Made by a program: the position numbers and the translations under genes | Assembly (NCBI GenBank): GCA_964630525.1 | Contig: CAZVUY010000003.1 | Location: forward strand, 48,699-112,698 | Source of the DNA: an uncultured Candidatus Saccharibacteria bacterium | GTDB lineage: Bacteria > Patescibacteriota > Minisyncoccia > Phycocordibacterales > WO2-35-19 | Direction of reading: 5' to 3' | Length of the DNA stretch: 64,000 nucleotides | Notes under the pieces: model-generated | Seen by the model: only the letters and a program-made list of their open reading frames with translations | Database searches by the model: none | Told to the model about the DNA's origin: nothing | Part shown: positions 4,168-64,000 of the stretch, in pieces | Numbering within the stretch: position 1 is the stretch's first letter | Layout: the number at the start of each line of letters is the position of its first letter

Positions 4168-4851
4168 ATGGAAAGGCTCTGTATGTCCAAAAAATTCAAC
4201 AATGGCTATGCGTTTGAGCGATATGTATTCGGTGAGCCGATCTTAAAAAGGGAGGCTCACCAGATCCAAGCGTCAGCGATCACTTTCAGCAATGCTTTAA
4301 GGAGGGTGATCGCCAATGCAAACGGGCATTTGCATTCTCAGCACCCTAAAACAGAAGTAGGGAGAGATTTGTGGCATTTCGTGCGCAAATTTTTGGTTGC
4401 AGCTCAATTGCCCATTCAGAAGTTTGGGTTCTATTCTGCCATCAAGACAGATGCCGACTTTCGGTACGGGGTCGATGGCTTCTTTTATTTGGTTAGCCAA
4501 GACAAGGAGGCTTTGGCAATAATTGACGCTTTTCTGATTCCGAATTTTCTGATTGAAAAATTGGAAAACCGGCAATTCAGTTCTTGTTCGCAAGTCCAAG
4601 ATGAGTTGTACCGGATGAAGAGAATCATCAGACAGGTAAAACAGTCAAATCCAAACAATGAGTTAACCTGGCCCCAATTTTGGCAAATATATAACAACAA
4701 AGAATCCGCGAAAGAATTTGTGAGGTTCAAGAATTCTTTCGTTTTTACCCAGTATGATTTGCGTAGGCCAAAGGGGATCAAGGAGTTGGGTAAAGAGATC
4801 GCCAGGTCCCTCTTTTGGCAGATACGACCCGGGGTAAAGTTATCTTTCTAG
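4168..4851 (+). CDS. Hypothetical protein (227 aa)
   Basis: ORF directly downstream of the structured RNA candidate. No recognisable domain. Confidence 0.45.
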   Translation: MERLCMSKKFNNGYAFERYVFGEPILKREAHQIQASAITFSNALRRVIANANGHLHSQHPKTEVGRDLWHFVRKFLVAAQLPIQKFGFYSAIKTDADFRYGVDGFFYLVSQDKEALAIIDAFLIPNFLIEKLENRQFSSCSQVQDELYRMKRIIRQVKQSNPNNELTWPQFWQIYNNKESAKEFVRFKNSFVFTQYDLRRPKGIKELGKEIARSLFWQIRPGVKLSF

Positions 4852-4862
4852 CTTCGGAAGGA

Positions 4863-4896
4863 AGCGGCCAGTTGGAGGCTGGTCGCTTTTATTTTG
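4863..4896 (+). terminator. Rho-independent terminator
   Basis: AGCGGCCAG-N7-CTGGTCGCT stem followed by TTTTATTTT. Confidence 0.5.
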
Positions 4897-4936
4897 AGGG
4901 TGTAATAAGATTATCGATATCAAATAATTACATTTA

Positions 4937-22638: not shown

Positions 22639-22968
22639 GTATATATTGATGACAGACCCCAAAACCCTGCATAGCTATGCAGAACTAAGAAAACGTCGCA
22701 TACTCGCGTTTAGGGCTTAGCAAAAGCTCTGTAGTGCGATAGATTCAAATGGATAGCCGTAAGTGCTATCATGTAAATACAACTGAATATTGGCCCGTAA
22801 AGGGCAGGACCTAAACCCGAAAGGGCATGGTCCCAAATTCGCAAGCAACATAGAGAACCCGTCATTAGGGCGTTGCTTGCGTTACTAGGGGAAACCCTAG
22901 TAGAGGAGTCCGCGAGGCCCTTCCTAGTGGCGGGCTTTCTGTTTCTATTAAAAACGCAAGCAACAAAC

Positions 22969-52340: not shown

Positions 52341-52377
52341 CAACAAAAAACCGCTTTGAATCAGCGGTTTTTTGTTG
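52341..52377 (+). terminator. Rho-independent terminator
   Basis: AAAACCGCT-TTGAATC-AGCGGTTTT plus TTTTGTTG. The outer 15-bp arms also pair. Confidence 0.6.
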
Positions 52378-52389
52378 TATATTTTGGTT

Positions 52390-54768
52390 ATGGATAATTA
52401 TAATCACCAAGAAATAGAAAAGAAGTGGCAAGAGAAGTGGAAGGCAGAAAAAATGTACGAAGCCAAAGATGATACTTCTAGAGATAAGAATTTTTATCTT
52501 CTTTTTGAATTCCCGTATCCATCGGGCAATCTGCATATAGGTCATTGGTACGCTTTTGCGATGCCTGATATTTTTGCTCGAATGAAGCGAATGCAGGACT
52601 TCAATATTCTTTTTCCGATTGGTTTCGATGCATTTGGTTTGCCGGCAGAGAACGCGGCGATCAAGCATGGCCTTGATCCTAAAAAGTGGACTTACGAAAA
52701 TATAGCCTACATGGAGCAGCAGCTCTCGAGTATGGGCGGCTCTTTTGATTGGTCGCGCAAGGTGGTGACTGCAGATCCAGAGTATTACAGGTGGACTCAG
52801 TGGTTGTTTTTGAAATTTTTCAAAAAAGGTTTGGCTTATAAGAGGCGGGCCAATGTTAACTGGTGTCCCAAAGATCAGACCGTGCTTGCCAATGAACAGG
52901 TGATAGCGGGCAAATGTGAAAGGTGCGGGACTGAGGTGGTGCAGAAAGATTTGGAGCAATGGTTTTTCAAAATTACGGATTATGCCGATCGCTTAGTTGA
53001 CGATCTGGCAAATCTAAATTGGCCTGAGCCCATCAAGGACGCACAGAGAAATTGGATAGGGAAGTCAGAAGGATCGGAAATAAGCTTTGAGCTTAAAGCT
53101 AAAAGCTTAGAGTCCGAACAGCTCCAAGCTCCAAGCTCCAAGCTCTCAGCTATTAATATATTCACCACCAGGGCAGACACTCTTTTGGGTGCTACTTACC
53201 TTGTTTTGGCGCCGGAGCATCCAGCAATTAAAAATCTAGCATCTAGCATCCAGAATCTAGCAGAAGTGGAAAAATATATTGAAGCAGTAAAGAAAAAAAC
53301 GGAAATAGAAAGGACTGATGCTAAAAAAGAAAAAACTGGTGTGGAGTTGAAGGGGGTAAAGGCTATCAATCCAGCGACTGGGGAAGAAATACCGGTTTGG
53401 GTGGCTGACTATGTACTTGGTGGCTATGGGACTGGGGCGGTAATGGCTGTACCAGCTCATGATGAGCGCGATTTTGATTTTGCTCAAAAATACAATTTGC
53501 CGATCAAGGAAATTACTCCTGATTGGGGTTTGTTGGAGCAGTTTGGCAAAAAAGTCACTAAATATAAATTGCGAGATTGGTTGTTGAGCCGCCAGCGCTA
53601 TTGGGGAGTGCCAATCCCGATCGTTTATGATCCGCAGGGTCAGCCGCAGCCAGTCCCTGAAGAGTATTTGCCTTGGCTTTTGCCGGAAGACAATATCGAC
53701 TTTACTCCTAGAGGTGCTTCACCACTCGCTTCATCTGCCGAACTAAAAGAAAGGGTGGTAAAAATTTTTGGTGAAGGCTGGACTCCAGAGTACGACACAA
53801 TGGATACTTTTGTTGATTCCTCTTGGTATTTTCTGAGGTACACCGATCCCAAGAATAGTCAGGAGTTTGCTTCTCAGGAGAAAATGAATGCTTGGTTGCC
53901 AGTCGACAAATATTCTGGCGGAGCCGAACATACGACGATGCATCTTTTGTATTCGCGCTTTTTCCACAAAGCTCTTTTCGATATGGGTTTGGTCAAAGAT
54001 TCAGAACCATATTTAAACCGAATGAATCGGGGTTTGATCCTCGGTCCCGATGGTCAAAAGATGAGCAAATCAAAAGGTAATGTGATTGATCCTGATGAAC
54101 AAGTGACTCGAGTTGGGGCTGACACGGTCCGCATGTACCTAGCCTTTATTGGGCCCTACAACGAGACCGGCCAATATCCGTGGGACCTAGGCGGGGTCGC
54201 TGGTGTTAGAAGATTTTTGGAAAGAGTGTGGAGAGTAAGCTTAGAGCTTAAAGCTAAAAGCTCAGAGGAAGAAAAGCTCTCAGCTCCAAGCTCTCAGCTC
54301 TCAACTCTTTTGCATAAAACTATAAAAAAAGTTACTGAAGATATCGAAGCTTTCAAATTCAACACCGCCATTTCGGCACTCATGATATTGCTGAATGAGT
54401 TGGAGAAACAGGTCACTAATAACCAGCCACAATTAACCAAACAAACATTCGAAGTATTTTTGAAGTTGTTGGCCCCGTTTGCACCACACATAACTGAAGA
54501 GATCTGGCATAATTTTGGGTATCAAAATTCTATTCATCTCGAAAAGTGGCCAGAATACGATGAAGCTGAAATCGTCGAGGATAAAGTGACAATATCAGTA
54601 CAGATCAATGGCAAAATCAGGGCTAAGTTTGAGGCCAGCTCTGATATTTCGGAGCAAGAGGCCAAAGATAGAGCGCTTATGATGCCGGAGGTGACCAAAT
54701 GGCTAGGGAGTGGGGAAGTTAAAAAGACAGTCTTTGTACCTAAAAAGATCATTAGTTTTGTGGTATAA
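52390..54768 (+). CDS. leuS: Leucyl-tRNA synthetase
   Basis: HIGH motif (PYPSGNLHIGHWY) and KMSKS present. The track ORF starts at TTG 52372; ATG at 52390. Confidence 0.9.
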   Translation: MDNYNHQEIEKKWQEKWKAEKMYEAKDDTSRDKNFYLLFEFPYPSGNLHIGHWYAFAMPDIFARMKRMQDFNILFPIGFDAFGLPAENAAIKHGLDPKKWTYENIAYMEQQLSSMGGSFDWSRKVVTADPEYYRWTQWLFLKFFKKGLAYKRRANVNWCPKDQTVLANEQVIAGKCERCGTEVVQKDLEQWFFKITDYADRLVDDLANLNWPEPIKDAQRNWIGKSEGSEISFELKAKSLESEQLQAPSSKLSAINIFTTRADTLLGATYLVLAPEHPAIKNLASSIQNLAEVEKYIEAVKKKTEIERTDAKKEKTGVELKGVKAINPATGEEIPVWVADYVLGGYGTGAVMAVPAHDERDFDFAQKYNLPIKEITPDWGLLEQFGKKVTKYKLRDWLLSRQRYWGVPIPIVYDPQGQPQPVPEEYLPWLLPEDNIDFTPRGASPLASSAELKERVVKIFGEGWTPEYDTMDTFVDSSWYFLRYTDPKNSQEFASQEKMNAWLPVDKYSGGAEHTTMHLLYSRFFHKALFDMGLVKDSEPYLNRMNRGLILGPDGQKMSKSKGNVIDPDEQVTRVGADTVRMYLAFIGPYNETGQYPWDLGGVAGVRRFLERVWRVSLELKAKSSEEEKLSAPSSQLSTLLHKTIKKVTEDIEAFKFNTAISALMILLNELEKQVTNNQPQLTKQTFEVFLKLLAPFAPHITEEIWHNFGYQNSIHLEKWPEYDEAEIVEDKVTISVQINGKIRAKFEASSDISEQEAKDRALMMPEVTKWLGSGEVKKTVFVPKKIISFVV
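53083..53152 (+). repeat. In-frame repeat element, copy 1, inside leuS
   Basis: AAGCTTTGAGCTTAAAGCTAAAAGCTTAGAG followed by (AGCTCCA)x3-AGCTCTCAGCT. Translated as ELKAKSLE...APSSKLSA. Confidence 0.6.
54236..54305 (+). repeat. In-frame repeat element, copy 2, inside leuS
   Basis: AAGCTTAGAGCTTAAAGCTAAAAGCTCAGAG is 29/31 identical to copy 1 and is followed by AGCTCTCAGCTCCAAGCTCTCAGCTCTC. Translated as ELKAKSSEEEKLSAPSSQLS. Confidence 0.6.
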
Positions 54769-54858
54769 TCTGTTTGTTTGACAAAAAACTACTCTATGAT
54801 ATTGTTTAGAGCGTTCTAATTAAACTTTTTAATTTTATTATCAAAATAACTCAATCGG

Positions 54859-55914
54859 ATGAAAAAAGAAGTTCAAAAAAATAAATTAGCTACTCTCTCC
54901 TTCAATCCAAAGCAGGTGGTCAAAAAGCTGCTTGGCTCTCTACCAAACAGGGCTCAAGATGTGATAGTGGGTCGATTCGGACTGAACCAAGCGGGTGATG
55001 AAATGACCCTTGAAGCGATTGGTCAAAAATACGGCATTACCAGAGAACGTGTCCGACAAATAGAGAATTATGCCATCAACCACATTCGCAAATCCGATAT
55101 TTATACTAAAGAGAAGCCTGTTTTTGAAGAACTGCTTTCGGTCGTGGCCAAGATGGGCGGAGTTATCTCTGAAGAAGATTTGCTTGACTACTTAGCAAAA
55201 GATGAGAGTACTAAAAAACACCTTCATTTTTTGCTAGTAGTAGGTGATGATTTCAACAAGATCAAGGAAGACAGTGAATTTAAACATCGTTGGCATATCG
55301 ATAAAGCTTTGTCCGAAAGGATTGAAGATGCTCTTCGCAAGCTCTATACCAAACTCTCTGATGACGCGATCGTGCCAGAGTCAGAAATGATCTCTTCTTT
55401 TTTGGAACATTTGAAAGACGTTTCTGAAGATTATAAACAGGATGAGATCATCACTCGATGGCTTTCTCTTTCTAAAAACATTTCTAAGAATCCGCTCGGT
55501 GAATGGGGTAAAACCAAATCTTCCAACATCAAAACCAAAGGTGTCAGGGATTATGCTTATCTTATCTTGCGTCGACACGGTTCTCCTATTCATTTTCGGG
55601 AAGTTGCCAAATTGATCAGCGAAGTTTTCAAGAAGAAGGCTCACGTAGCGACAACTCACAATGAATTGATCAAGGATCCGAGATTTGTTTTGGTGGGCCG
55701 CGGCCTCTATGCTCTCAAAGAATGGGGTTATTCGACCGGTGTTGTCAAAGATGTGATCCGGGAAATCATCAAAAAGAATGGACCACTTTCGAAAGAGGAT
55801 ATCTTGGAGAGAGTATTGAAAGAGCGATATGTCAAACCAAACACTGTAATGGTCAACCTCCAAAACCCAAAGTATTTTAAAAAGACCAAACAAGGAGTAT
55901 ACACAATTGCCTAA
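54859..55914 (+). CDS. Sigma-70 region-4 HTH protein with a C-terminal HARE-HTH-like domain
   Basis: N-terminal LEAIGQKYGITRERVRQIENYAINHIR and C-terminal IHFREVAKLI...RFVLVGRGLYALKEWG. Confidence 0.55.
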   Translation: MKKEVQKNKLATLSFNPKQVVKKLLGSLPNRAQDVIVGRFGLNQAGDEMTLEAIGQKYGITRERVRQIENYAINHIRKSDIYTKEKPVFEELLSVVAKMGGVISEEDLLDYLAKDESTKKHLHFLLVVGDDFNKIKEDSEFKHRWHIDKALSERIEDALRKLYTKLSDDAIVPESEMISSFLEHLKDVSEDYKQDEIITRWLSLSKNISKNPLGEWGKTKSSNIKTKGVRDYAYLILRRHGSPIHFREVAKLISEVFKKKAHVATTHNELIKDPRFVLVGRGLYALKEWGYSTGVVKDVIREIIKKNGPLSKEDILERVLKERYVKPNTVMVNLQNPKYFKKTKQGVYTIA

Positions 55915-55938
55915 AAAGTCCTGTGCTATAATTTGGAC

Positions 55939-57168
55939 ATGCCAGATTTTATACCCCCAGAGATAGGGAATGCTCTTGTTCAAGCTTTCAAATATATCTA
56001 CTTAGCGATGCCTGTTTGGTTGCCTGTTTTTTTCCTCGTTACTCTTTTTAATGCCTGGATTTACTATCGCCGCTCAGCTTATTTCGCTGGCTTGGGGAGT
56101 ATTTTGCTTGAAATCAAATTGCCGAGAGAAGTATTTAAATCACCTGCGGCGATGGAGATCGTGCTTCAGGTTTTGCATCAAGGTGGTGGGGAGAGTACCT
56201 GGATCGATCGTCTTTGGCTTGGCAAAAAAAGAGATTGGTTTTCTCTCGAGATAGTCTCTTCTGGAGGTAAAGTGAGTTTCTACATTTGGACTCGACCCAA
56301 GTATCGCAACTTGATCGAGTCTCAGATCTATTCTCAATACCCAGGTGTCGAGGTTTATGAAGTCAAAGACTATACTTTGCCGTTTTTCTACAATCCGGAG
56401 GCCAATGAAGTTTGGGCTTGCGGCTTTGAGTTGGCTGAAGCTGATCCGTATCCCATTAAGACCTATATTGATTATGGTCTGGAGAAAGATCCTAAAGAAG
56501 AGTTCAAGATTGATCCGATGACCTCGATGATCGAGTTCCTTGGTTCGATCGTGAGTGGTCAGAATATTTGGATCCAAATATTAGTGCGAGCTCACAAGAA
56601 ACGTCGTGTTCTCGATCTTTTTGATGAAAAGGAAGATGCTTGGAAGGATGAGGCCAAAAATCAAATAAAAACAATCATTGAGAGCATGAAGGTTGAGGGT
56701 GCTAGTTTTGGTCGGATTCCAACCAAAGGTGAAGCAGATAAAATCGCCGCTTTAGAGAGGAGTGTCACCAAACTACCTTTTGATTGTGGTATCCGAGCCA
56801 TCTATTTGACTGATAAAGAAAAATTTAATTCAGCCAACATTGGCGGTATTACCGGGGCTCTCAAACAGTATGGTTCAAATGGTTTGAATGGATTCAAGCC
56901 GGCTGGTGGGATGACTATCTTCGATTACCCTTGGCAAGAGTGGTTTGGGGCCAAAGAAAAACTAAAACCAATTTTTCTTGATGAGTATAAACTCAGAAGA
57001 TTTTTTCACTCACCTTATGTTGGTAAAAAGTTTTATCACAAACCGTTTGTACTGAATGCTGAAGAGTTGGCCACAATTTTCCATTTTGTTGGATCGGTCG
57101 CCATGACACCAACCTTCGAAAGAGTTAATTCTAAGAAAGCTGAAGCACCTTCCAATTTACCGATATGA
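55939..57168 (+). CDS. Hypothetical membrane protein
   Basis: N-terminal TM helix. The track ORF starts at TTG 55933; ATG at 55939. Confidence 0.4.
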   Translation: MPDFIPPEIGNALVQAFKYIYLAMPVWLPVFFLVTLFNAWIYYRRSAYFAGLGSILLEIKLPREVFKSPAAMEIVLQVLHQGGGESTWIDRLWLGKKRDWFSLEIVSSGGKVSFYIWTRPKYRNLIESQIYSQYPGVEVYEVKDYTLPFFYNPEANEVWACGFELAEADPYPIKTYIDYGLEKDPKEEFKIDPMTSMIEFLGSIVSGQNIWIQILVRAHKKRRVLDLFDEKEDAWKDEAKNQIKTIIESMKVEGASFGRIPTKGEADKIAALERSVTKLPFDCGIRAIYLTDKEKFNSANIGGITGALKQYGSNGLNGFKPAGGMTIFDYPWQEWFGAKEKLKPIFLDEYKLRRFFHSPYVGKKFYHKPFVLNAEELATIFHFVGSVAMTPTFERVNSKKAEAPSNLPI

Positions 57169-58271
57169 TAAAAATTTCAAATTTCAAAACTCAAATCTCA
57201 AAATTGTGGAGAAGATTTTTAGCCGAGACAGAAAGCCTGCGGGTGATTGTCGGCACCAATCCAAAAGTTATACTTTGGCGACTCCATATTTTCGGTTACT
57301 CCCCATTTCTTTCAAGGCATATTTTCAAAATCGCAGCTACTGGTCTGGTACTTTTCTCATTCTTTTTTAGTTTCTATATTTTTTGTTGGCGTTCACCACG
57401 ACCATTCCCTGAAAATGCATTAGTTACTGTTGAACGAGGTGAGCCTCTTTCTCAAATAGTGAACGATTTTGCTAGCAAAGGGGTGGTTCGTTCGTCATTT
57501 TGGCTTAGGGTTTTTATCACTATTTCAGGTGGACAAAATAGGGTGATTGCCGGAGATTATTATTTCCCAAAAGCAAAAAATGTTTTTAGTGTTGCTAAGG
57601 TGTTGCATCAGGGTAAATTTGGGCTTATCCCTTTTCGAGTCACTATCCCGGAAGGTCTTTCCTCAATGGAAATTGCTGACATCTTAGATGAACAGTTACC
57701 CGCTTTTAATTCAAGTGATTTTATAAGCGAGGTTGATAGCGGTGATTTTGAAGGTTACTTATTCCCCGATACTTACTTTTTTATGCCCAATACCAAGGCG
57801 GGCGATGTCATCTTGACCATGCGCGAGAATTTTGCGCGACAGGTGAGTACTTATGAAGCTGATATTGCAAAGTTTGAAAAGCCGCTGCATGAGGTGGTGA
57901 TCATGGCTTCTATCATTGAAGATGAGGCTAACAAGTCACTTGCCGATAAAAGGATTATTTCCGGTATTCTTTGGAAGCGGATCAGGATGGAAATGCCAAT
58001 GCAGGTGGATGCTCCTTTCAAATATTACAACGGCAAGCACAGCTACACTTTGACCAACGAAGATTTAAAAGAAGATCATCCTTACAATACTTATATAAAC
58101 AAAGGTTTGCCGCCGACGGCGATCAGCAACCCGGGGATTGATTCTATTCGCGCCGCTATCACCCCGACCCCGACTAATTACCTTTACTTCATGTCTGACA
58201 AGTCAGGTAACCTTTACTACGCTTCCGACTTTGAGGGGCATCAGGTGAATAGGGAGCGGTATTTGAGGTAG
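57165..58271 (+). CDS. mltG: Endolytic murein transglycosylase MltG (YceG-like)
   Basis: N-terminal TM helix and a YceG-like domain with GLPPTAISNPG. Confidence 0.75.
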   Translation: MIKISNFKTQISKLWRRFLAETESLRVIVGTNPKVILWRLHIFGYSPFLSRHIFKIAATGLVLFSFFFSFYIFCWRSPRPFPENALVTVERGEPLSQIVNDFASKGVVRSSFWLRVFITISGGQNRVIAGDYYFPKAKNVFSVAKVLHQGKFGLIPFRVTIPEGLSSMEIADILDEQLPAFNSSDFISEVDSGDFEGYLFPDTYFFMPNTKAGDVILTMRENFARQVSTYEADIAKFEKPLHEVVIMASIIEDEANKSLADKRIISGILWKRIRMEMPMQVDAPFKYYNGKHSYTLTNEDLKEDHPYNTYINKGLPPTAISNPGIDSIRAAITPTPTNYLYFMSDKSGNLYYASDFEGHQVNRERYLR

Positions 58272-58299
58272 CGATTAAAATATTGAAAGATTTAAAGAT

Positions 58300-58350
58300 T
58301 GAAAAAATAGAAAGCGAGCCGTCCTCCGAGTACGGCTCGCTCTGGTTTAT
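58300..58350. terminator. Bidirectional terminator hairpin
   Basis: Perfect 10-bp stem AGCGAGCCGT...ACGGCTCGCT with T-runs on both strands. Confidence 0.5.
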
Positions 58351-58727
58351 TGGCCTGCCGGTAATCTCTCCAGAGCTTTTTCGAACACGGCTTTGTAGAC
58401 CTCCATTGGTTTTGCCTGCCCCACCCCTTTCGCGAGGAAAAACATTGGGTTGGGGTCGGAATCTGTGGACAAACAGCAAAAGATTCTGGTTGCCCAAGAC
58501 CCCGATTGACAAATAAAACGCACAAGAAATTGAACCGAGAAAATATTATGTCCTGACTGCTGGTACCTTTCTATTTCAAGTCGAACTATTGAATCTTTTG
58601 GCAACGAAACACCTTGATTTATAACCTCACACTGTAACATCAAGGATGTAACGGTTTGGGCTGTTACGATGTGGTTGAAGTCAGGATTGTTGAATTCAAC
58701 ATTTTTTATTTCAAACTGGAAATTCAT
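58347..58727 (-). CDS. Hypothetical protein (126 aa)
   Basis: ATG at 58727 has an AAAGGAG RBS. The terminator lies directly downstream. Confidence 0.45.
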   Translation of the reverse strand: MNFQFEIKNVEFNNPDFNHIVTAQTVTSLMLQCEVINQGVSLPKDSIVRLEIERYQQSGHNIFSVQFLVRFICQSGSWATRIFCCLSTDSDPNPMFFLAKGVGQAKPMEVYKAVFEKALERLPAGQ

Positions 58728-58776
58728 CCAAAGCTCCTTTCTTGCGAACTTTCCGAAAATAAACTAACATACTGTT

Positions 58777-60027
58777 ATGAAAAGTCAACCAAGTAGTGAA
58801 AAATTCCATAGCCCTAAAAAAGCAGGCAAGGCCCAATCGAATTTTCTACTACAAGATCAAGCGAAAAAAGGAAGGGTGTTTGTCGGACTCTCCGGTGGGG
58901 TGGACTCGGCGGTGAGTGCGGCGCTCTTAAAAAAAGAAGGTTACGAGGTGACCGGAGTTTTTATAAAGGCCTGGGACCCAGCCTCGACGTCAAACCACAG
59001 GCATATAAAATATCCGTGCACATGGAAAGAAGACAGGCGGAGCGCTATGCGAGCGGCAGCTGTTTTGGACATACCATTTTTAACTTTGGATTTGGAAAAA
59101 GAATACAAACAGGAAGTGGTGGACTACATGATAAAAGAATACAAAGAGGGTAAAACTCCAAACCCGGATGTTATGTGCAACAAAGAAATAAAATTTGGCC
59201 ATTTTTTGAAGTTCGCTTTAAAAAATGGAGCAGATTTTGTGGCGACCGGGCATTATGCTCAAAAGCTAAAAGCTAAAAGCTTAGAGCTTAAAGTAAAAAT
59301 TTCCAATTCCAAACCTCTTAGCTCCAAGCTTTTAGCTCCAAGCTATATCTTGAGTGAAGCGAAAGATAAAAACAAAGATCAATCATATTTCCTCTGGACT
59401 CTTACTCAAGAGCAGCTTGCTCGTACGCTCTTTCCGGTCGGTCATCTTGAGAAAGAAGGGGTGAGGAAGTTGGCGGTGAAATTTGGTTTGCCGCAGGCCA
59501 CTCGGAAAGACAGCCAGGGTCTGTGCTTCCTTGGCAAGATCGATATAAAAGAATTTTTGAAAGATTATTTACAATCAGCAAAAGGCGAGGTGATTAATGA
59601 AAAAGGTGAAGTGGTGGGCGAACATGATAGTGCTGTATTTTATACGATTGGGGAGAGGCATGGTTTTAGGGTTACCCAAAAGAGGGACAACGAAGTGCCG
59701 CTGTATGTGGTGGCTAAAGATATAGTTAAAAATACCATCACTGTTGCACCCAGGTTGAATACTGGAGAAAAGAAAGAGAGAGTTAGACAAAAGATTGCCT
59801 TGTCAGATGTAAACTGGAATCAAGGCAAAGAGCCTGATTTGAAAAAGTTTTATACCGCCAGAGTGAGATATCGGGGTGAAAAAATAAAATGCCAAATTAA
59901 GATTGAGGAAGGTGGGGTGGTCGTGAGCCTAGCCAAATACCAACAAGGAGTATCTCTCGGTCAATCACTCGTTTTGTATCAGGGTGAAATTTGTATTGGT
60001 GGCGGCGTGATGTCTGAAATATTGTAA
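58777..60027 (+). CDS. mnmA: tRNA-specific 2-thiouridylase MnmA
   Basis: VGLSGGVDSAVSA PP-loop and DQSYFLW. About 30 aa N-terminal extension. Confidence 0.85.
   Translation: MKSQPSSEKFHSPKKAGKAQSNFLLQDQAKKGRVFVGLSGGVDSAVSAALLKKEGYEVTGVFIKAWDPASTSNHRHIKYPCTWKEDRRSAMRAAAVLDIPFLTLDLEKEYKQEVVDYMIKEYKEGKTPNPDVMCNKEIKFGHFLKFALKNGADFVATGHYAQKLKAKSLELKVKISNSKPLSSKLLAPSYILSEAKDKNKDQSYFLWTLTQEQLARTLFPVGHLEKEGVRKLAVKFGLPQATRKDSQGLCFLGKIDIKEFLKDYLQSAKGEVINEKGEVVGEHDSAVFYTIGERHGFRVTQKRDNEVPLYVVAKDIVKNTITVAPRLNTGEKKERVRQKIALSDVNWNQGKEPDLKKFYTARVRYRGEKIKCQIKIEEGGVVVSLAKYQQGVSLGQSLVLYQGEICIGGGVMSEIL
59262..59345 (+). repeat. In-frame repeat element, copy 3, inside mnmA
   Basis: AAAGCTAAAAGCTAAAAGCTTAGAGCTTAAAG followed by AGCTCCAAGCTTTTAGCTCCAAGCT. 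Translated as KLKAKSLELKVKIS...SSKLLAPS. The insert is about 20 aa longer than the equivalent loop in E. coli MnmA. Confidence 0.55.
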
Positions 60028-60049
60028 ATATGTTATATAATACTCATCT

Positions 60050-60886
60050 ATGAATGATGGTGTCACTATAGTCAAAGCTACGGGCGAGAGAGAAGTTTTC
60101 GATCCGCAAAAACTTCGCAATTCTTTACGTAAAGCTGGTGCGGGAGAAGAAACGACCAACAGGATCATTGATCAAATAGTTGGAGTTCTAAAAGATGGTG
60201 ATACTACCAAAGAGATTTATACTCGAGCTTTCGACCTCCTTAAACAGGAAAATGTGCCAAAGGTAACTGCTCGTTATTCCTTGAGAAATGCCATCATGGA
60301 TTTGGGTCCTTCCGGTTTTCCGTTTGAACAGTTTGTCGCTCAGATTTTCCAGGCCAAAGGTTTTGAGACTGCAACTGATTTTATTGCTCAAGGTCACTGC
60401 GCTGAACACGAGATCGATATTGTGGCTTGGAATCCAGAAAAATTGATCATGGTGGAAGCAAAGTTTCACAATATCTTCGGTATCAAGTCTGATCTGAAGG
60501 TGGCGCTTTATGTCAAAGCGCGTTGGGAAGATTTGGTAGATCAAGAATTTGATTTTGGTCACAAACGTAAATTAGATGAAGGTTGGCTTGTCACCAATAC
60601 CAAGTTTTCGGAAGCAGCGATCAAATATGCCAATTGCCGAGGAATGAAATTGGTCGGCTGGAATTATCCAGAAGATGGCAGTTTGCAAGATTTGATCGAA
60701 GATGCCAGGCTTCATCCGATCACCTGCCTCACCTCTATCAACCCGAGTGACGAAAAGCTTCTGATGGCTGCCGGTATAGTGCTCTGTAAACAGGCTAAGG
60801 ACAATCCGGATGTGGTGCTTCAAACCGGACTAAATAAAAACAAGTTAGATAAAATGTTGGAGGAGATTGAAATTATTTCTAACTGA
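60050..60886 (+). CDS. ATP-cone domain fused to an Mrr-like PD-(D/E)xK restriction-endonuclease domain
   Basis: N-terminal ATP-cone IVKATGEREVFDPQKLRNSL. Nuclease motif EIDIVAW...LIMVEAKF. Confidence 0.6.
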   Translation: MNDGVTIVKATGEREVFDPQKLRNSLRKAGAGEETTNRIIDQIVGVLKDGDTTKEIYTRAFDLLKQENVPKVTARYSLRNAIMDLGPSGFPFEQFVAQIFQAKGFETATDFIAQGHCAEHEIDIVAWNPEKLIMVEAKFHNIFGIKSDLKVALYVKARWEDLVDQEFDFGHKRKLDEGWLVTNTKFSEAAIKYANCRGMKLVGWNYPEDGSLQDLIEDARLHPITCLTSINPSDEKLLMAAGIVLCKQAKDNPDVVLQTGLNKNKLDKMLEEIEIISN

Positions 60887-61620
60887 TGGCCTTTTATCGC
60901 AAAAAACTTTATGATCCGAAAGCAAAGGAGGCTTTCAAAATAAGCCGGTCCAAAATCGACCTTTTCATCCAATGCCCGCGTTGTTTCTACCTTGATCGTC
61001 GGCTGGGGGTGTCGAGACCACAAGGTTTCCCTTTCAACCTAAACAGCGCAGTCGATATTTTGCTTAAAAAAGAATTTGACTTGCATCGAGCTCAAAAAAC
61101 ACCGCATCCTCTCATGGATGCTTATGGAGTCGAGGCAGTACCTTTGGCTCATCAAAACATGGACACCTGGAGAGATACCTTCAAAGGAGTAGAGTTTTTC
61201 CATGAACCAACCAATTTTATTGTTTTCGGCGGGGTAGATGATGTTTGGATCAATCAAAATCAGGAGCTTATCGTAGTTGACTACAAGGCGACTAGTAAAG
61301 ATGAAAAAGTAAATTTGGATGCCGAGTGGCAAGATGGTTACAAGAGGCAAATGGAAGTTTACCAATGGCTCTTGCGCCAAAATGGTTTTAAGGTTAGTGA
61401 CACTGGGTATTTCGTTTACGCCAATGGCAAAAGAGACAGGGAAGCCTTCGATGGGAAACTAGAGTTTGATGTGACCCTGATTCCTTACACTGGTTCCGCT
61501 GATTGGATAGAAAAAACTTTGCTAAAAATGAAAGAATGTTTAGATGGAGAAATACCAAAATCTTCTCCGGTTTGCGAGTATTGTGCTTATATAAATAATG
61601 TAAATAATTCTTTAAAATAG
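60886..61620 (+). CDS. PD-(D/E)xK nuclease with a Cas4/RecB-like Cys cluster
   Basis: N-terminal CPRC, ELIVVDYKAT and C-terminal CEYC. Its start overlaps the previous stop. Confidence 0.55.
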   Translation: MAFYRKKLYDPKAKEAFKISRSKIDLFIQCPRCFYLDRRLGVSRPQGFPFNLNSAVDILLKKEFDLHRAQKTPHPLMDAYGVEAVPLAHQNMDTWRDTFKGVEFFHEPTNFIVFGGVDDVWINQNQELIVVDYKATSKDEKVNLDAEWQDGYKRQMEVYQWLLRQNGFKVSDTGYFVYANGKRDREAFDGKLEFDVTLIPYTGSADWIEKTLLKMKECLDGEIPKSSPVCEYCAYINNVNNSLK

Positions 61621-61622
61621 TA

Positions 61623-61646
61623 GTGGCGAACCTTTCGGTTCGCCAC
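61623..61646. terminator. GC hairpin / terminator
   Basis: GTGGCGAACC-TTTC-GGTTCGCCAC perfect 10-bp stem. Confidence 0.45.
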
Positions 61647-61797
61647 ACTGGTTTGTCTGCCTAGCCCTTTCTCTTCTTGAGAGGGTCCGGTAGACGGAAA
61701 GTATCTTTCCCCTTGGTTTGAGCGATGATGAAATCGGTCCGCGCCAAGAGCTTTCTGAAATTACTCAAACTCATCCTGTTCTCCTAATGAAAATAGT

Positions 61798-62070
61798 ATG
61801 AAAACAAAAATAAAAACACAAATAACTTTTACACAGAAAGTTTTGGAGGTTGTAAGGAAAATACCAAGGGGGAAAATTTTGACCTACAAACAAGTGGCCA
61901 AATTTGCAGGGAGTCCAAATGCGGCTCGGGCAGTCGGGAGTGTTTTGAAGCAAAATTATGATCCCAAAATTCCTTGTCACCGAGTGATTCGTAGCGACGG
62001 AGTAGCCGGTGAATACAATCGTGGGCGAGCCAACAAAATCAAATTATTAAAAGCAGAAGAGGCGCTCTAG
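61798..62070 (+). CDS. MGMT-family (O6-alkylguanine transferase DNA-binding domain) protein
   Basis: PCHRV active-site motif and the HTH GKILTYKQVAKFAGSPNAARAVG. Confidence 0.65.
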   Translation: MKTKIKTQITFTQKVLEVVRKIPRGKILTYKQVAKFAGSPNAARAVGSVLKQNYDPKIPCHRVIRSDGVAGEYNRGRANKIKLLKAEEAL

Positions 62071-62208
62071 TTTGGCGCCCCTGAGAAAAACTCGTTAATA
62101 AGAACTATTACTATCCAAAGCAGGATAATAATATCAATAAAGCGAATCTTAACCAACCCCTTCTGATTCATAGTTGCACCTCTCCTCCATTTATAACATA
62201 ATTGCCGC

Positions 62209-62814
62209 ATGTCTCAAACAGTAGAAGAGAGGAGAGAATTGTTAAAAAAGATACGTGACGAAGTGGTGGAGTTGAAAAACTCGCCACTATATAAATTTCG
62301 GGTTGAAAATAAAAATCTGCCGGTGATCGGGGAGGGAAGTCATTTTGCCAAAATCATGTTTATCGGTGAGGCGCCGGGTAGGAACGAAGCCAAGACCGGC
62401 CGACCATTTTGCGGGGCGGCCGGTAAAATTTTGGACGAGCTCTTAGGGGCTGTAGGTATTGAGCGGAGCGAAATATATGTGACCAATATCGTCAAAGATC
62501 GGCCGCCACAAAATAGGGATCCGTTGCCGGAGGAGATAAAAATTTATGGTCCGTTTTTGGATCGACAAATTGAGATTATCCAACCGAGAGTGATCGCAAC
62601 TTTGGGTCGGTATGCGATGGGGTATGTTATGCCGAAGTTTGACCTGTCTCTCAAGTTAGAACCGATCAGCAAAGCTCATGGCAAAACATATGAAGCCCTG
62701 GCTACTTATGGTCCGATCAAAATTATCCCTCTCTATCACCCAGCCGTTGCTGTCTACAACTCCCATACCAAAGATATTTTAAAAAAAGATTTTGAGGTTT
62801 TGAAAAATTTGTAG
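62209..62814 (+). CDS. Uracil-DNA glycosylase, family 4
   Basis: GEAPGRNEAKTGRPFCGAAGKILDELL. Confidence 0.8.
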   Translation: MSQTVEERRELLKKIRDEVVELKNSPLYKFRVENKNLPVIGEGSHFAKIMFIGEAPGRNEAKTGRPFCGAAGKILDELLGAVGIERSEIYVTNIVKDRPPQNRDPLPEEIKIYGPFLDRQIEIIQPRVIATLGRYAMGYVMPKFDLSLKLEPISKAHGKTYEALATYGPIKIIPLYHPAVAVYNSHTKDILKKDFEVLKNL

Positions 62815-62826
62815 TAAGGTTTTCCT

Positions 62827-64000
62827 ATGAAATACAAAACGGAGTGGGATTTGGGTCATATCTATAAAGGAGAGGTGAAAAGGCAGGTAGCCAAAGATCT
62901 GGCTACTACTAAAAAAGAGTATTTGGCATTTGCCAAAAAATATCGCCAAAACAAAAAGCATCTTAAAAATCCAAAGGCGCTAGCGGGGGCTATTTTAGAA
63001 TATGAAAAATTAGGAGCCAATCCATCTAGCTCCCGGCCGAGTGCTTACTATTCGTACCGAAAGAGCTTGAATGCGCTGGACAATGAAGCTCAAGCCGAGC
63101 TCGCCAAACTCTCTGATTTTTATTCCAAACTTGGGAATGAAGTGGAATTTTTTATGCTGGAAGTTGGGAAAATATCCAAAAATCTACAACCCAAATTTTT
63201 GAAATCAAAAGAGTTGGCGCCTTTTAAATATTTTTTGACTAAAGTCTTTGAAAATGCCAAACATGATTTGAGTGAAGCGGAAGAAAAAATAATGAATCTA
63301 AAAAGCGCACCCTCTCACCAGATGTGGGTTTCTGGTTTTGCTCGGCTTTTGAATAAGCAAGAAGTGGAACACGAGGGGAGGCCAGTGCCTATCTCTGAAG
63401 CTGGCTCAAAAATTTCTACTTTGCCGACGAAAGCAAGAAGAGAGCTACATCAAAAATTGATGAAGGTTTACGAAAACGTGGCTGATTTTTCGGAAAGCGA
63501 AATAAATGCGATCGTGACCAACAAGAAAATCAGTGATGAATTGCGAGGGTTCAAAACTCCTTATGAAGAAACTGTCAAAGGTTATGAAAATGAACCAAAG
63601 ACGGTGAGGGAACTGACAGAGGCAGTAACCAAAAATTTTGAGATTGCTCACCGTTTTTTCAAGTTGAAAGCCGAAATGCTGGGTGAAAAAAGGCTGACCT
63701 ATGCCGACCGGGCGGCTAAAGTCGGCTCGGCTCAAGTGAAGATTGGCTTTGAAGAAGCAACGGAAAGAGTGATCCGTTCATTCAATGAAGCTGATCCAAG
63801 TTTCGGCGCTTTTGTCAAAGAAATGCTGGAGCGAGGTTTAGTGGACGTTTTTCCCAAGAAGGGCAAAACCAGTGGGGCCTTCTGTTCTTCTTGTACCGGC
63901 CTACCTTCTTATGTGCTCCTAAATCATATTGAAGATTTTAGATCGATCACCACTTTGGCTCACGAGATGGGCCATGCTCTGCACAGCAAATATTCGAAAA
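62827..64000 (+). CDS. pepF: Oligoendopeptidase F / M3-family peptidase, N-terminal part (3' end lies outside the window)
   Basis: Open to the window end. HEMGHALH zinc motif near the end. Confidence 0.75.
   Translation, partial: MKYKTEWDLGHIYKGEVKRQVAKDLATTKKEYLAFAKKYRQNKKHLKNPKALAGAILEYEKLGANPSSSRPSAYYSYRKSLNALDNEAQAELAKLSDFYSKLGNEVEFFMLEVGKISKNLQPKFLKSKELAPFKYFLTKVFENAKHDLSEAEEKIMNLKSAPSHQMWVSGFARLLNKQEVEHEGRPVPISEAGSKISTLPTKARRELHQKLMKVYENVADFSESEINAIVTNKKISDELRGFKTPYEETVKGYENEPKTVRELTEAVTKNFEIAHRFFKLKAEMLGEKRLTYADRAAKVGSAQVKIGFEEATERVIRSFNEADPSFGAFVKEMLERGLVDVFPKKGKTSGAFCSSCTGLPSYVLLNHIEDFRSITTLAHEMGHALHSKYSK

Follow-up and report, generated by a model that had tools for sequence, protein, structure and literature searches.

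What two overlapping nuclease genes do in the middle of a conserved housekeeping gene string is the question raised by a 64,000-nucleotide stretch of DNA from an uncultured Candidatus Saccharibacteria bacterium (the window, along which all positions are counted unless a locus is named). The upstream gene (gene 1; 60050–60886, + strand, 278 aa) joins an ATP-cone to a PD-(D/E)xK nuclease of the AF1548 type, as seen from the list of open reading frames (ORFs), Pfam, a match to PDB entry 1Y88, an AlphaFold2 (AF2) model and Foldseek; the downstream gene (gene 2; 60886–61620, + strand, 244 aa) encodes a solo RecB/Cas4-family (PDDEXK_1) nuclease with a CxxC...CxxC pattern, based on the ORF list, Pfam, TIGR models and an AF2 model. 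An earlier note on this DNA had placed both ORFs at these positions and quoted motifs from them, all of which are present, and had proposed an allosterically regulated nuclease with a DNA-degrading or defence function. With somewhat more confidence than doubt, we propose that gene 1 encodes a housekeeping nuclease that is gated by adenine nucleotides and acts in the turnover or repair of nucleic acids, and that it lies next to a solo Cas4-family exonuclease.

An ATP-cone joined to an AF1548-type nuclease

The fusion of an ATP-cone to an Mrr-type PD-(D/E)xK domain, as read by the earlier note, was borne out by Pfam, in which both domains score above threshold. Residues 6–78 (60065–60283) match the ATP-cone (PF03477) with 31.8 bits vs. 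a cut-off of 25.8, and residues 89–202 (60314–60655), which form the nuclease core, match Mrr_cat with 36.9 bits vs. a cut-off of 21. The C-terminal residues 223–274 (60716–60871, like the other two domains on the + strand) match AF1548-like_C (PF22357) with 18 bits, below the cut-off of 23.9; the phmmer alignment of residues 94–273 with 1Y88 (AF1548; E 2e-32) nevertheless continues to residue 273, and the profile of the gene 1 family matches the same entry with E 2.6e-52. No Mrr_N winged-helix DNA-recognition domain was found by Pfam, the N-terminus being occupied by the ATP-cone. The AF2 model has a mean predicted local distance difference test (pLDDT) score of 88.5, with the linker at residues 69–75 as a less confident exception, and the C-terminal domain is helical in it, with a pLDDT of about 88–91; this domain is presumed to bind nucleic acid. 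As a Foldseek query, the model returned 1Y88 at the top (E 2e-15, template modelling (TM) score 0.73, normalised to the target), followed by the ligand-activated nucleases Cdn1, Can2 and VC1899 and then by the modification-dependent MspJI and AspBHI. Further, the N-terminal part superposes on NrdR (7p37) with a root mean square deviation of 2.2 Å over 77 residues, as well as on the ATP-cones of ribonucleotide reductases, and the family profile aligns the cone with that of E. coli NrdR in such a way that the Lys-x-x-Gly and Lys-Leu motifs match.

The size of the family was assessed by a full HMMER scan over 1.84 billion cluster representatives, which gave 1195 clusters (50% identity) at E ≤ 1e-3, 838 at E ≤ 1e-10 and 444 at E ≤ 1e-30, and nearly all of the best 150 clusters are about 280 aa in length and match the query over its full length. 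Word-index searches of 90%-identity clusters yielded 5429 with the window protein as query and 7522 with the Pontibacter homologue. Since both nucleases have thousands of homologues each, the two ORFs are real genes and not chance ORFs. To score conservation, we aligned the query with 139 full-length sequences, each taken from a separate 50%-identity cluster, and checked the result on a 62-sequence alignment (A1). In this set E93, D123, E136 and K138 are 100% conserved, as confirmed in A1, with D123 contained in the motif HEIDIVAW and E136 and K138 in MVEAKF. The last three correspond to D38/E51/K53 of AF1548, which were predicted to be catalytic in the Global Ocean Sampling (GOS) paper, where AF1548 was predicted to be a nuclease (PMC1821046). 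G115, E121, R158, D161, N183, P207 and P223 are also invariant among the 140 sequences, and within the ATP-cone K9, G12 and K21 are 95–99% conserved, again confirmed in A1.

The finding that nearly all members are about 280 aa and match over their full length argues that sensor and nuclease have been kept together under selection; the fusion, consisting of a probably functional nucleotide sensor and a probably active nuclease, appears to be ancient and selected as a unit. Moreover, an allosteric, nucleotide-regulated nuclease remains the most plausible biochemistry of gene 1, as throughout the family the lysines of the ATP-cone are conserved along with the catalytic residues. A literature search returned no paper describing the ATP-cone/AF1548 nuclease fusion and no functional study of the family, whose members are labelled in databases as 'restriction endonuclease', 'ATP cone domain-containing protein', 'ATPase' or 'Holliday junction resolvase'.

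Gene 2 and the gene order around the pair

Gene 2 scores 49 bits against PDDEXK_1 (PF12705; cut-off 22) and carries the motifs CPRC (C30, C33), DYK (D132, K134) and CEYC (C230, C233). The four cysteines in these motifs do not vary among 46 relatives with identity down to 49%, and neither do D118, D132-x-K134 and Q155xxxY159, in agreement with the earlier description of a RecB/Cas4-like nuclease with a Cys cluster. The domain searches that had been suggested as a check on both genes gave a divided answer: the ATP-cone and Mrr_cat models score above threshold, as described above, but the Cas4 models remain below it, at 20.9 vs. 22.7 bits for Cas_Cas4 (PF01930) and 34 vs. 65 for TIGR00372. The Cas4 models of PADLOC, which carry no curated cut-off, match gene 2 down to E 1e-9. 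The nearest folds of its AF2 model (pLDDT 86.6) in Foldseek are the AdnAB nuclease domain, MGME1, lambda exonuclease, SSO0001 Cas4, RecE and type I-C Cas4, at E of about 1e-4 and TM scores of 0.4–0.5. Tandem Repeats Finder (TRF) and a direct-repeat search detected no CRISPR-like repeat array in the whole 64-kb window, and the genes called up to about 10 kb from the pair in both directions include no cas gene and hence neither cas1 nor cas2. With scores below the thresholds of the cas4 models and no CRISPR setting, gene 2 is a nuclease of the RecB/Cas4 superfamily and not a canonical Cas4, and it stands alone, as the earlier note had supposed. Hudaiberdiev et al. 2017 (PMC5704561) reported solo Cas4 proteins to be common and mostly vertically inherited in candidate phyla radiation (CPR) bacteria, for example in Parcubacteria, and described the pfam12705 branch as one without CRISPR association; the stand-alone status of Cas4-like nucleases in CPR bacteria is therefore already known and consistent with that work.

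The stop codon of gene 1 overlaps the start of gene 2, as had been noticed before: the ATG of gene 2 has one base in common with the TGA of gene 1, at ...AACTGATGGCC.... A consensus scan found a promoter-like site (CTGAAA, a 16-nt spacer and TATAAT, 10/12 matches) at 60014–60041 on the + strand, just upstream of the start codon of gene 1, and we regard it, by this consensus match alone, as a candidate promoter. At the other end, a 10-bp GC-rich hairpin, GTGGCGAACC-TTTC-GGTTCGCCAC, lies 3 nt past the stop codon of gene 2 (61623–61646, + strand) and may form the end of a two-gene transcription unit as a putative terminator without a strong T-run. The 1-nt overlap, taken with the promoter-like site and the hairpin that bracket the pair, suggests that genes 1 and 2 form a bicistronic unit in this genome.

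To follow the pair across genomes, we collected 24 loci from GTDB species genomes, 80 from metagenomes and several from plasmids and individual contigs, and their neighbours were scored by tblastn with a protein panel as well as by unbiased clustering of all neighbouring ORFs. Exact or near-exact copies of both proteins are found on Patescibacteria contigs, the closest named relatives being Candidatus Zambryskibacteria. In the window the two nucleases are preceded, all on the + strand, by YchF, DUF5671, leucyl-tRNA synthetase (LeuRS), a sigma-70-type factor, DUF8128, YceG and MnmA, and are followed on the same strand by MGMT, uracil-DNA glycosylase (UDG), an M3 oligoendopeptidase, a YfbR-like HD phosphohydrolase, alanyl-tRNA synthetase (AlaRS), two genes without a Pfam match, and then IF-1 and ribosomal proteins S13, S11 and S4. 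The string LeuRS-sigma-DUF8128-YceG-MnmA-[ATP-cone nuclease]-[Cas4-like]-[MGMT]-UDG-PepM3 (PepF), which occupies about 52372–64000 of the window, recurs in about 70 loci (for example L001–L022 and L031–L035). It is conserved to an unusual depth across Paceibacteria-type Patescibacteria, even where the ATP-cone protein is only about 44% identical. Within the same string, gene 2 is conserved at 49–80% identity. The region of the pair is thus a housekeeping one and not a defence island.

MnmA, the tRNA 2-thiouridylase identified by Pfam at 58777–60027 (+ strand), is the most constant neighbour of gene 1: it occupies position −1 in 57/96 loci and lies within 1.5 kb upstream in 62/80. The Cas4-like gene is the commonest neighbour at +1 (32/98 loci), a position taken elsewhere by UDG (13), MgtC (9), beta-CASP (5) or DUF7282 (5). 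Where syntenic loci have enough downstream sequence, the Cas4-like gene is found within 3 kb in 28/46 and directly adjacent in 18/46, UDG within 5 kb in 28/43 and MGMT in 14/43, and at least one of the three lies downstream in 37/43. In L007, L010 and L053 UDG directly follows the ATP-cone gene, with no Cas4-like gene in the sequence stretch examined, and L117 keeps MnmA, the Cas4-like gene and UDG with an unrelated 134-aa ORF, without a Pfam match, in the ATP-cone slot (4516–4920 of that locus). There are 18 loci that have at least 1.5 kb of upstream sequence and no MnmA in it; two of these (L048 and L061) have a Cas4-like gene, and both still carry DUF8128-YceG. The Cas4-like gene is absent from the other 16 of these loci, which show no shared gene order at all and come from Bacteroidota, Chlamydiota, Daviesbacteria and others.

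The earlier expectation that the two genes would be conserved together holds for the syntenic loci, with a Cas4-like gene within 3 kb in the majority of them, but not for loci without the shared order, and each gene also occurs alone. By the refuting condition that the earlier note had set, the idea of an obligate pair fails outside the inherited order, as the Cas4-like gene accompanies the ATP-cone gene in only 2/18 loci without upstream MnmA and in 0/16 without any shared order. Within one lineage the two genes are truly associated, though not more strongly than gene 1 is with MnmA, and the association is gone where gene order is not inherited. As the conserved order with MnmA and YceG shows, adjacency alone says little about function in this lineage; the most fitting reading of the pair is conserved synteny, perhaps combined with co-transcription, rather than an obligate system. 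The two nucleases, both intact at their catalytic residues, are members of large families already annotated in databases, held together by inherited gene order.

In the same set of loci, an MgtC-family membrane protein comes right after the ATP-cone nuclease (+1 or +2) in a subset of patescibacterial loci (L056, L061, L065, L069, L070, L077, L084, L085, L088, L095, L099 and L115); in L115 it stands at +2 behind a DUF7282 protein, and five of the clustered loci likewise have DUF7282 at +1. Cation transporters (P-type ATPases, CDF, ZIP, CorA, RND) recur near the ATP-cone gene in other phyla. We considered the MgtC and cation-transporter link as a functional clue and set it aside, as 11 of the MgtC cases belong to the syntenic string and may go back to a few insertion events.

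Possible roles of the two nucleases

ATP-cones of NrdR and ribonucleotide reductases bind adenine nucleotides and change their conformation or oligomeric state. If the ATP-cone of gene 1 behaves as in these proteins, it would sense adenine nucleotides, either as ATP vs. dATP or as the adenylate level, and a nucleotide-dependent conformational or oligomeric change would switch the Mg2+-dependent endonuclease on or off, by which nucleic-acid cleavage would become coupled to the state of the nucleotide pool. Gene 2 would probably act as a separate end-processing exonuclease bearing a four-Cys metal or iron-sulphur (Fe-S) cluster. The two genes, probably co-transcribed here, would serve DNA maintenance and/or a turnover that feeds nucleotide salvage, alongside MGMT and UDG. 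We infer that the pair is neither an obligate two-component system nor an anti-phage system.

A different setting of the family is seen in other phyla. A tblastn search with the fusion matched 2/72,556 plasmids, one from Pontibacter actiniarum (Bacteroidota) and one from Criblamydia sequanensis (Chlamydiota), and both carry the same four genes, namely the ATP-cone nuclease, a metallo-beta-lactamase (MBL)-fold hydrolase, a protein of about 500 aa annotated as 'thymidine phosphorylase family' and a ribose-phosphate pyrophosphokinase. The same string of four is present on two further long contigs, one of them labelled as uncultured Cyclobacterium sp. (P0465), and on a Saprospiraceae contig and in L078 the fusion adjoins the beta-CASP gene, the phosphorylase gene following after a few kb. 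Of the three partner proteins, the hydrolase is of the aCPSF1/RNase J type (beta-CASP/RMMBL), the phosphorylase falls into the archaeal-type family TIGR02645 (589 bits vs. 434.6; the AMP phosphorylase model gives 480 bits, below its cut-off of 535), and the kinase is a Prs of the PRK07199 subfamily. Around the string we found PPK2, P-type ATPases, Usp, PFK, a GAPDH-like gene, a 2-hydroxyacid dehydrogenase, phosphoketolase, acetate kinase, glycogen phosphorylase and cation transporters. The string lies at 1972–6597 of L025, 7001–11608 of L026, 6001–10666 of L113 and 6001–10671 of L114, and partly in L030 and L078; it is often followed by a 227-aa protein without a Pfam match, by PPK2 and by a P-type ATPase, with metal transporters nearby. 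No paper on a beta-CASP/phosphorylase/Prs island was returned by a literature search. By guilt by association in these other phyla, the context in Bacteroidota and Chlamydiota points to catabolism of nucleic acids and nucleotides in response to energy or ion stress, a process that an adenylate sensor would be well placed to control.

Several points speak against a gated housekeeping nuclease acting in turnover or repair. Domains, folds, residue conservation and gene-neighbourhood statistics are direct observations; nucleotide binding, gating, the substrate (DNA or RNA) and the physiological role are what we infer. The Arg that follows the first Lys (K9) in many ATP-cones is Ala or Ser in the gene 1 family, although E. 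coli NrdR likewise lacks it and has Ser at the position after the first Lys. No beta-CASP, thymidine-phosphorylase-family, Prs or P-type ATPase gene was found in the window by tblastn, and because none of these partner genes is there, the nucleotide-catabolism operon is not a local one. The neighbours are repair genes in Patescibacteria vs. RNase, phosphorylase and cation-transport genes in Bacteroidota, so that a single family-wide role may not exist. Moreover, the weak functional meaning of adjacency in the Patescibacteria string weakens the inference of a repair role as well.

The closeness of the two genes could also be taken to mean that they form an obligate two-nuclease repair module, in which the ATP-cone endonuclease would nick or cut, the Cas4-like enzyme would resect, and both would share their regulation with MGMT and UDG in one DNA-repair operon. 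The overlap of stop and start codons, the promoter-like site and hairpin around the pair, the rank of the Cas4-like gene as the commonest +1 neighbour and its presence within 3 kb in 28/46 syntenic loci agree with this, as does the occurrence of Cas4-like, MGMT or UDG genes downstream in 37/43. The same survey, however, leaves 18/46 syntenic loci with no Cas4-like gene within 3 kb, contains three loci that go straight to UDG (L007, L010, L053) and one that keeps the Cas4-like gene without the ATP-cone gene (L117), and shows the partnership falling to 2/18 without upstream MnmA and to 0/16 without shared gene order. In addition, the functionally unrelated MnmA is linked at least as tightly, and MgtC, DUF7282 or 450–2000 nt often intervene between the ATP-cone and Cas4-like genes. 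We consider such a module unlikely.

Still less probable, in our judgement, is a role in anti-phage or anti-plasmid defence; the earlier note had entertained a defence function in general terms. Gene 1 would then be an Mrr-like type IV nuclease whose ATP-cone would sense infection-induced shifts in ATP or dNTPs, comparable to Can2 and Card1. Its Mrr_cat fold, the position of Cdn1, Can2, VC1899, MspJI and AspBHI as the next structural matches after 1Y88, and the ability of the gene to sit on plasmids and accessory islands in Bacteroidota and Chlamydiota would fit such a function. Yet a PADLOC scan of the two nucleases, MGMT and UDG gave the fusion marginal matches only (E 0.007), which are not convincing, tblastn found no homologue in 50,697 phage records, the plasmid matches amount to the two among 72,556, Mrr_N is absent by Pfam, and no methyltransferase or recognisable defence gene adjoins the gene in the about 115 neighbourhoods examined. 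A stable place in a housekeeping string across deep divergence is, further, the opposite of the behaviour of defence islands, and the defence role is not supported by these results. Finally, gene 1 might be an NrdR-like transcription factor, in which the ATP-cone would control DNA binding by the nuclease fold and the C-terminal helical domain, without cleavage, and thereby regulate nucleotide-metabolism genes. The architecture does parallel that of NrdR, which combines a DNA-binding module with an ATP-cone, and the gene comes first in nucleotide-metabolism operons in Bacteroidota; but the invariance of E93, D123, E136 and K138 in 140 diverged members would be unexpected for a domain that only binds, and we regard this possibility as very improbable.

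Returning to the nucleotide-gated housekeeping nuclease, a broader version of it can be put forward tentatively, and we are inclined to doubt it in this form: that the family comprises widespread adenine-nucleotide-gated nucleases whose breakdown of RNA or DNA, be it cellular or imported, is tied to the energy and nucleotide status, working in a starvation pathway in Bacteroidota and Chlamydiota and in salvage in Patescibacteria, as a counterpart of the CARF nucleases. If this were true, the route in Bacteroidota and Chlamydiota would lead from the nuclease to the beta-CASP RNase, then to a nucleoside monophosphate (NMP) or nucleoside phosphorylase and to Prs run towards ribose-5-phosphate and ATP, with PPK2, phosphoketolase and acetate kinase nearby. 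In Patescibacteria, which are not known to synthesise nucleotides de novo, the nuclease would count among the near-core enzymes and feed salvage beside repair enzymes, and the family as a whole would play in housekeeping the part that the CARF-nuclease effectors play in CRISPR immunity.

For this window, the outcome is that the pair is neither a new defence system nor a CRISPR remnant. The ATP-cone nuclease family is a worthwhile target for biochemistry, being large, with conserved sensor and catalytic residues and a crystal structure of the nuclease half. An ATP/dATP-gated nuclease, if confirmed, would carry ATP-cone regulation beyond ribonucleotide reduction and could help to explain nucleic-acid turnover in salvage-dependent bacteria with tiny genomes.

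Neighbouring genes and comparison with known systems

The DNA-repair genes that had been read alongside the pair are indeed there. An MGMT C-terminal-domain protein of 90 aa (61798–62070, + strand; DNA_binding_1, E 9e-28) carries the active-site motif PCHRV, and a family-4 UDG of 201 aa (62209–62814, + strand) scores 189 bits vs. 125 with TIGR00758. The MGMT gene codes for the C-terminal DNA-binding and active-site domain only, with PCHRV kept in 25/25 relatives, and its product looks like a minimal yet active alkyltransferase. Family-4 UDGs typically carry a four-Cys set of Fe-S ligands; the UDG of the window has one cysteine, as do 29/43 relatives in the fetched loci, and one relative has none, so the clade to which it belongs seems to be without this ligand set. 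Past UDG (62815–64000; 12778–15163 of L027) lie the M3 oligoendopeptidase and the YfbR-like HD phosphohydrolase of the 5'-deoxynucleotidase family, the latter being a further nucleotide-metabolism gene in the same co-directional string. DUF8128 (55933–57168), another member of the conserved string, is a domain of unknown function.

Between YceG and MnmA, 505 nt (58272–58776) contain no called gene and only short ORFs on both strands, and a gap of similar size separates the two genes in several relatives. No nucleotide-level conservation was seen in related loci for the intergenic stretches 58272–58776, 61621–61797 and 62071–62208, and Rfam at a permissive threshold returned for 58200–62300 only chance miRNA-like matches inside mnmA. 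Elsewhere in the window, Rfam detected a LOOT RNA (RF03000) at 22808–22923 on the + strand, with 63.2 bits vs. a gathering score of 46.4.

When compared with known systems, gene 2 has the RecB motifs (D, DxK, QxxxY) in common with solo Cas4/PDDEXK_1 proteins and with AdnAB/AddAB nuclease domains, together with four conserved cysteines. Canonical Cas4 and AddB have a single N-terminal Cys and a C-terminal CxxCx5C; the cysteines of gene 2 are arranged 2+2, as an N-terminal and a C-terminal CxxC, in contrast to the 1+3 arrangement of canonical Cas4. Gene 1 has an N-terminal ATP-cone of about 75 residues in common with NrdR and ribonucleotide reductases, but its output is a nuclease and not a Zn-ribbon DNA binder or a reductase, and its cone is about 8 residues shorter than that of NrdR. 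Like Can2, Card1 and Cdn1, gene 1 fuses a small-molecule sensor to an effector of restriction-endonuclease fold; the sensor is CARF in those proteins and an ATP-cone in gene 1, which has a housekeeping setting and no CRISPR or cyclic-oligoadenylate context. By analogy, the likeness to the CARF nucleases may indicate a possible working mode rather than membership in their family. With Mrr type IV restriction endonucleases gene 1 shares Mrr_cat, but neither Mrr_N nor a defence context, and the closest subfamily is the AF1548-like one. AF1548 itself, a structural-genomics protein of A. fulgidus (1Y88), is a 199-aa chain without an ATP-cone, the alignment starting at its residue 22 and at residue 93–94 of gene 1; its nuclease core and C-terminal helical domain are homologous to those of gene 1, and with homology over both and the same D...ExK kept, gene 1 belongs with the AF1548-like nucleases.

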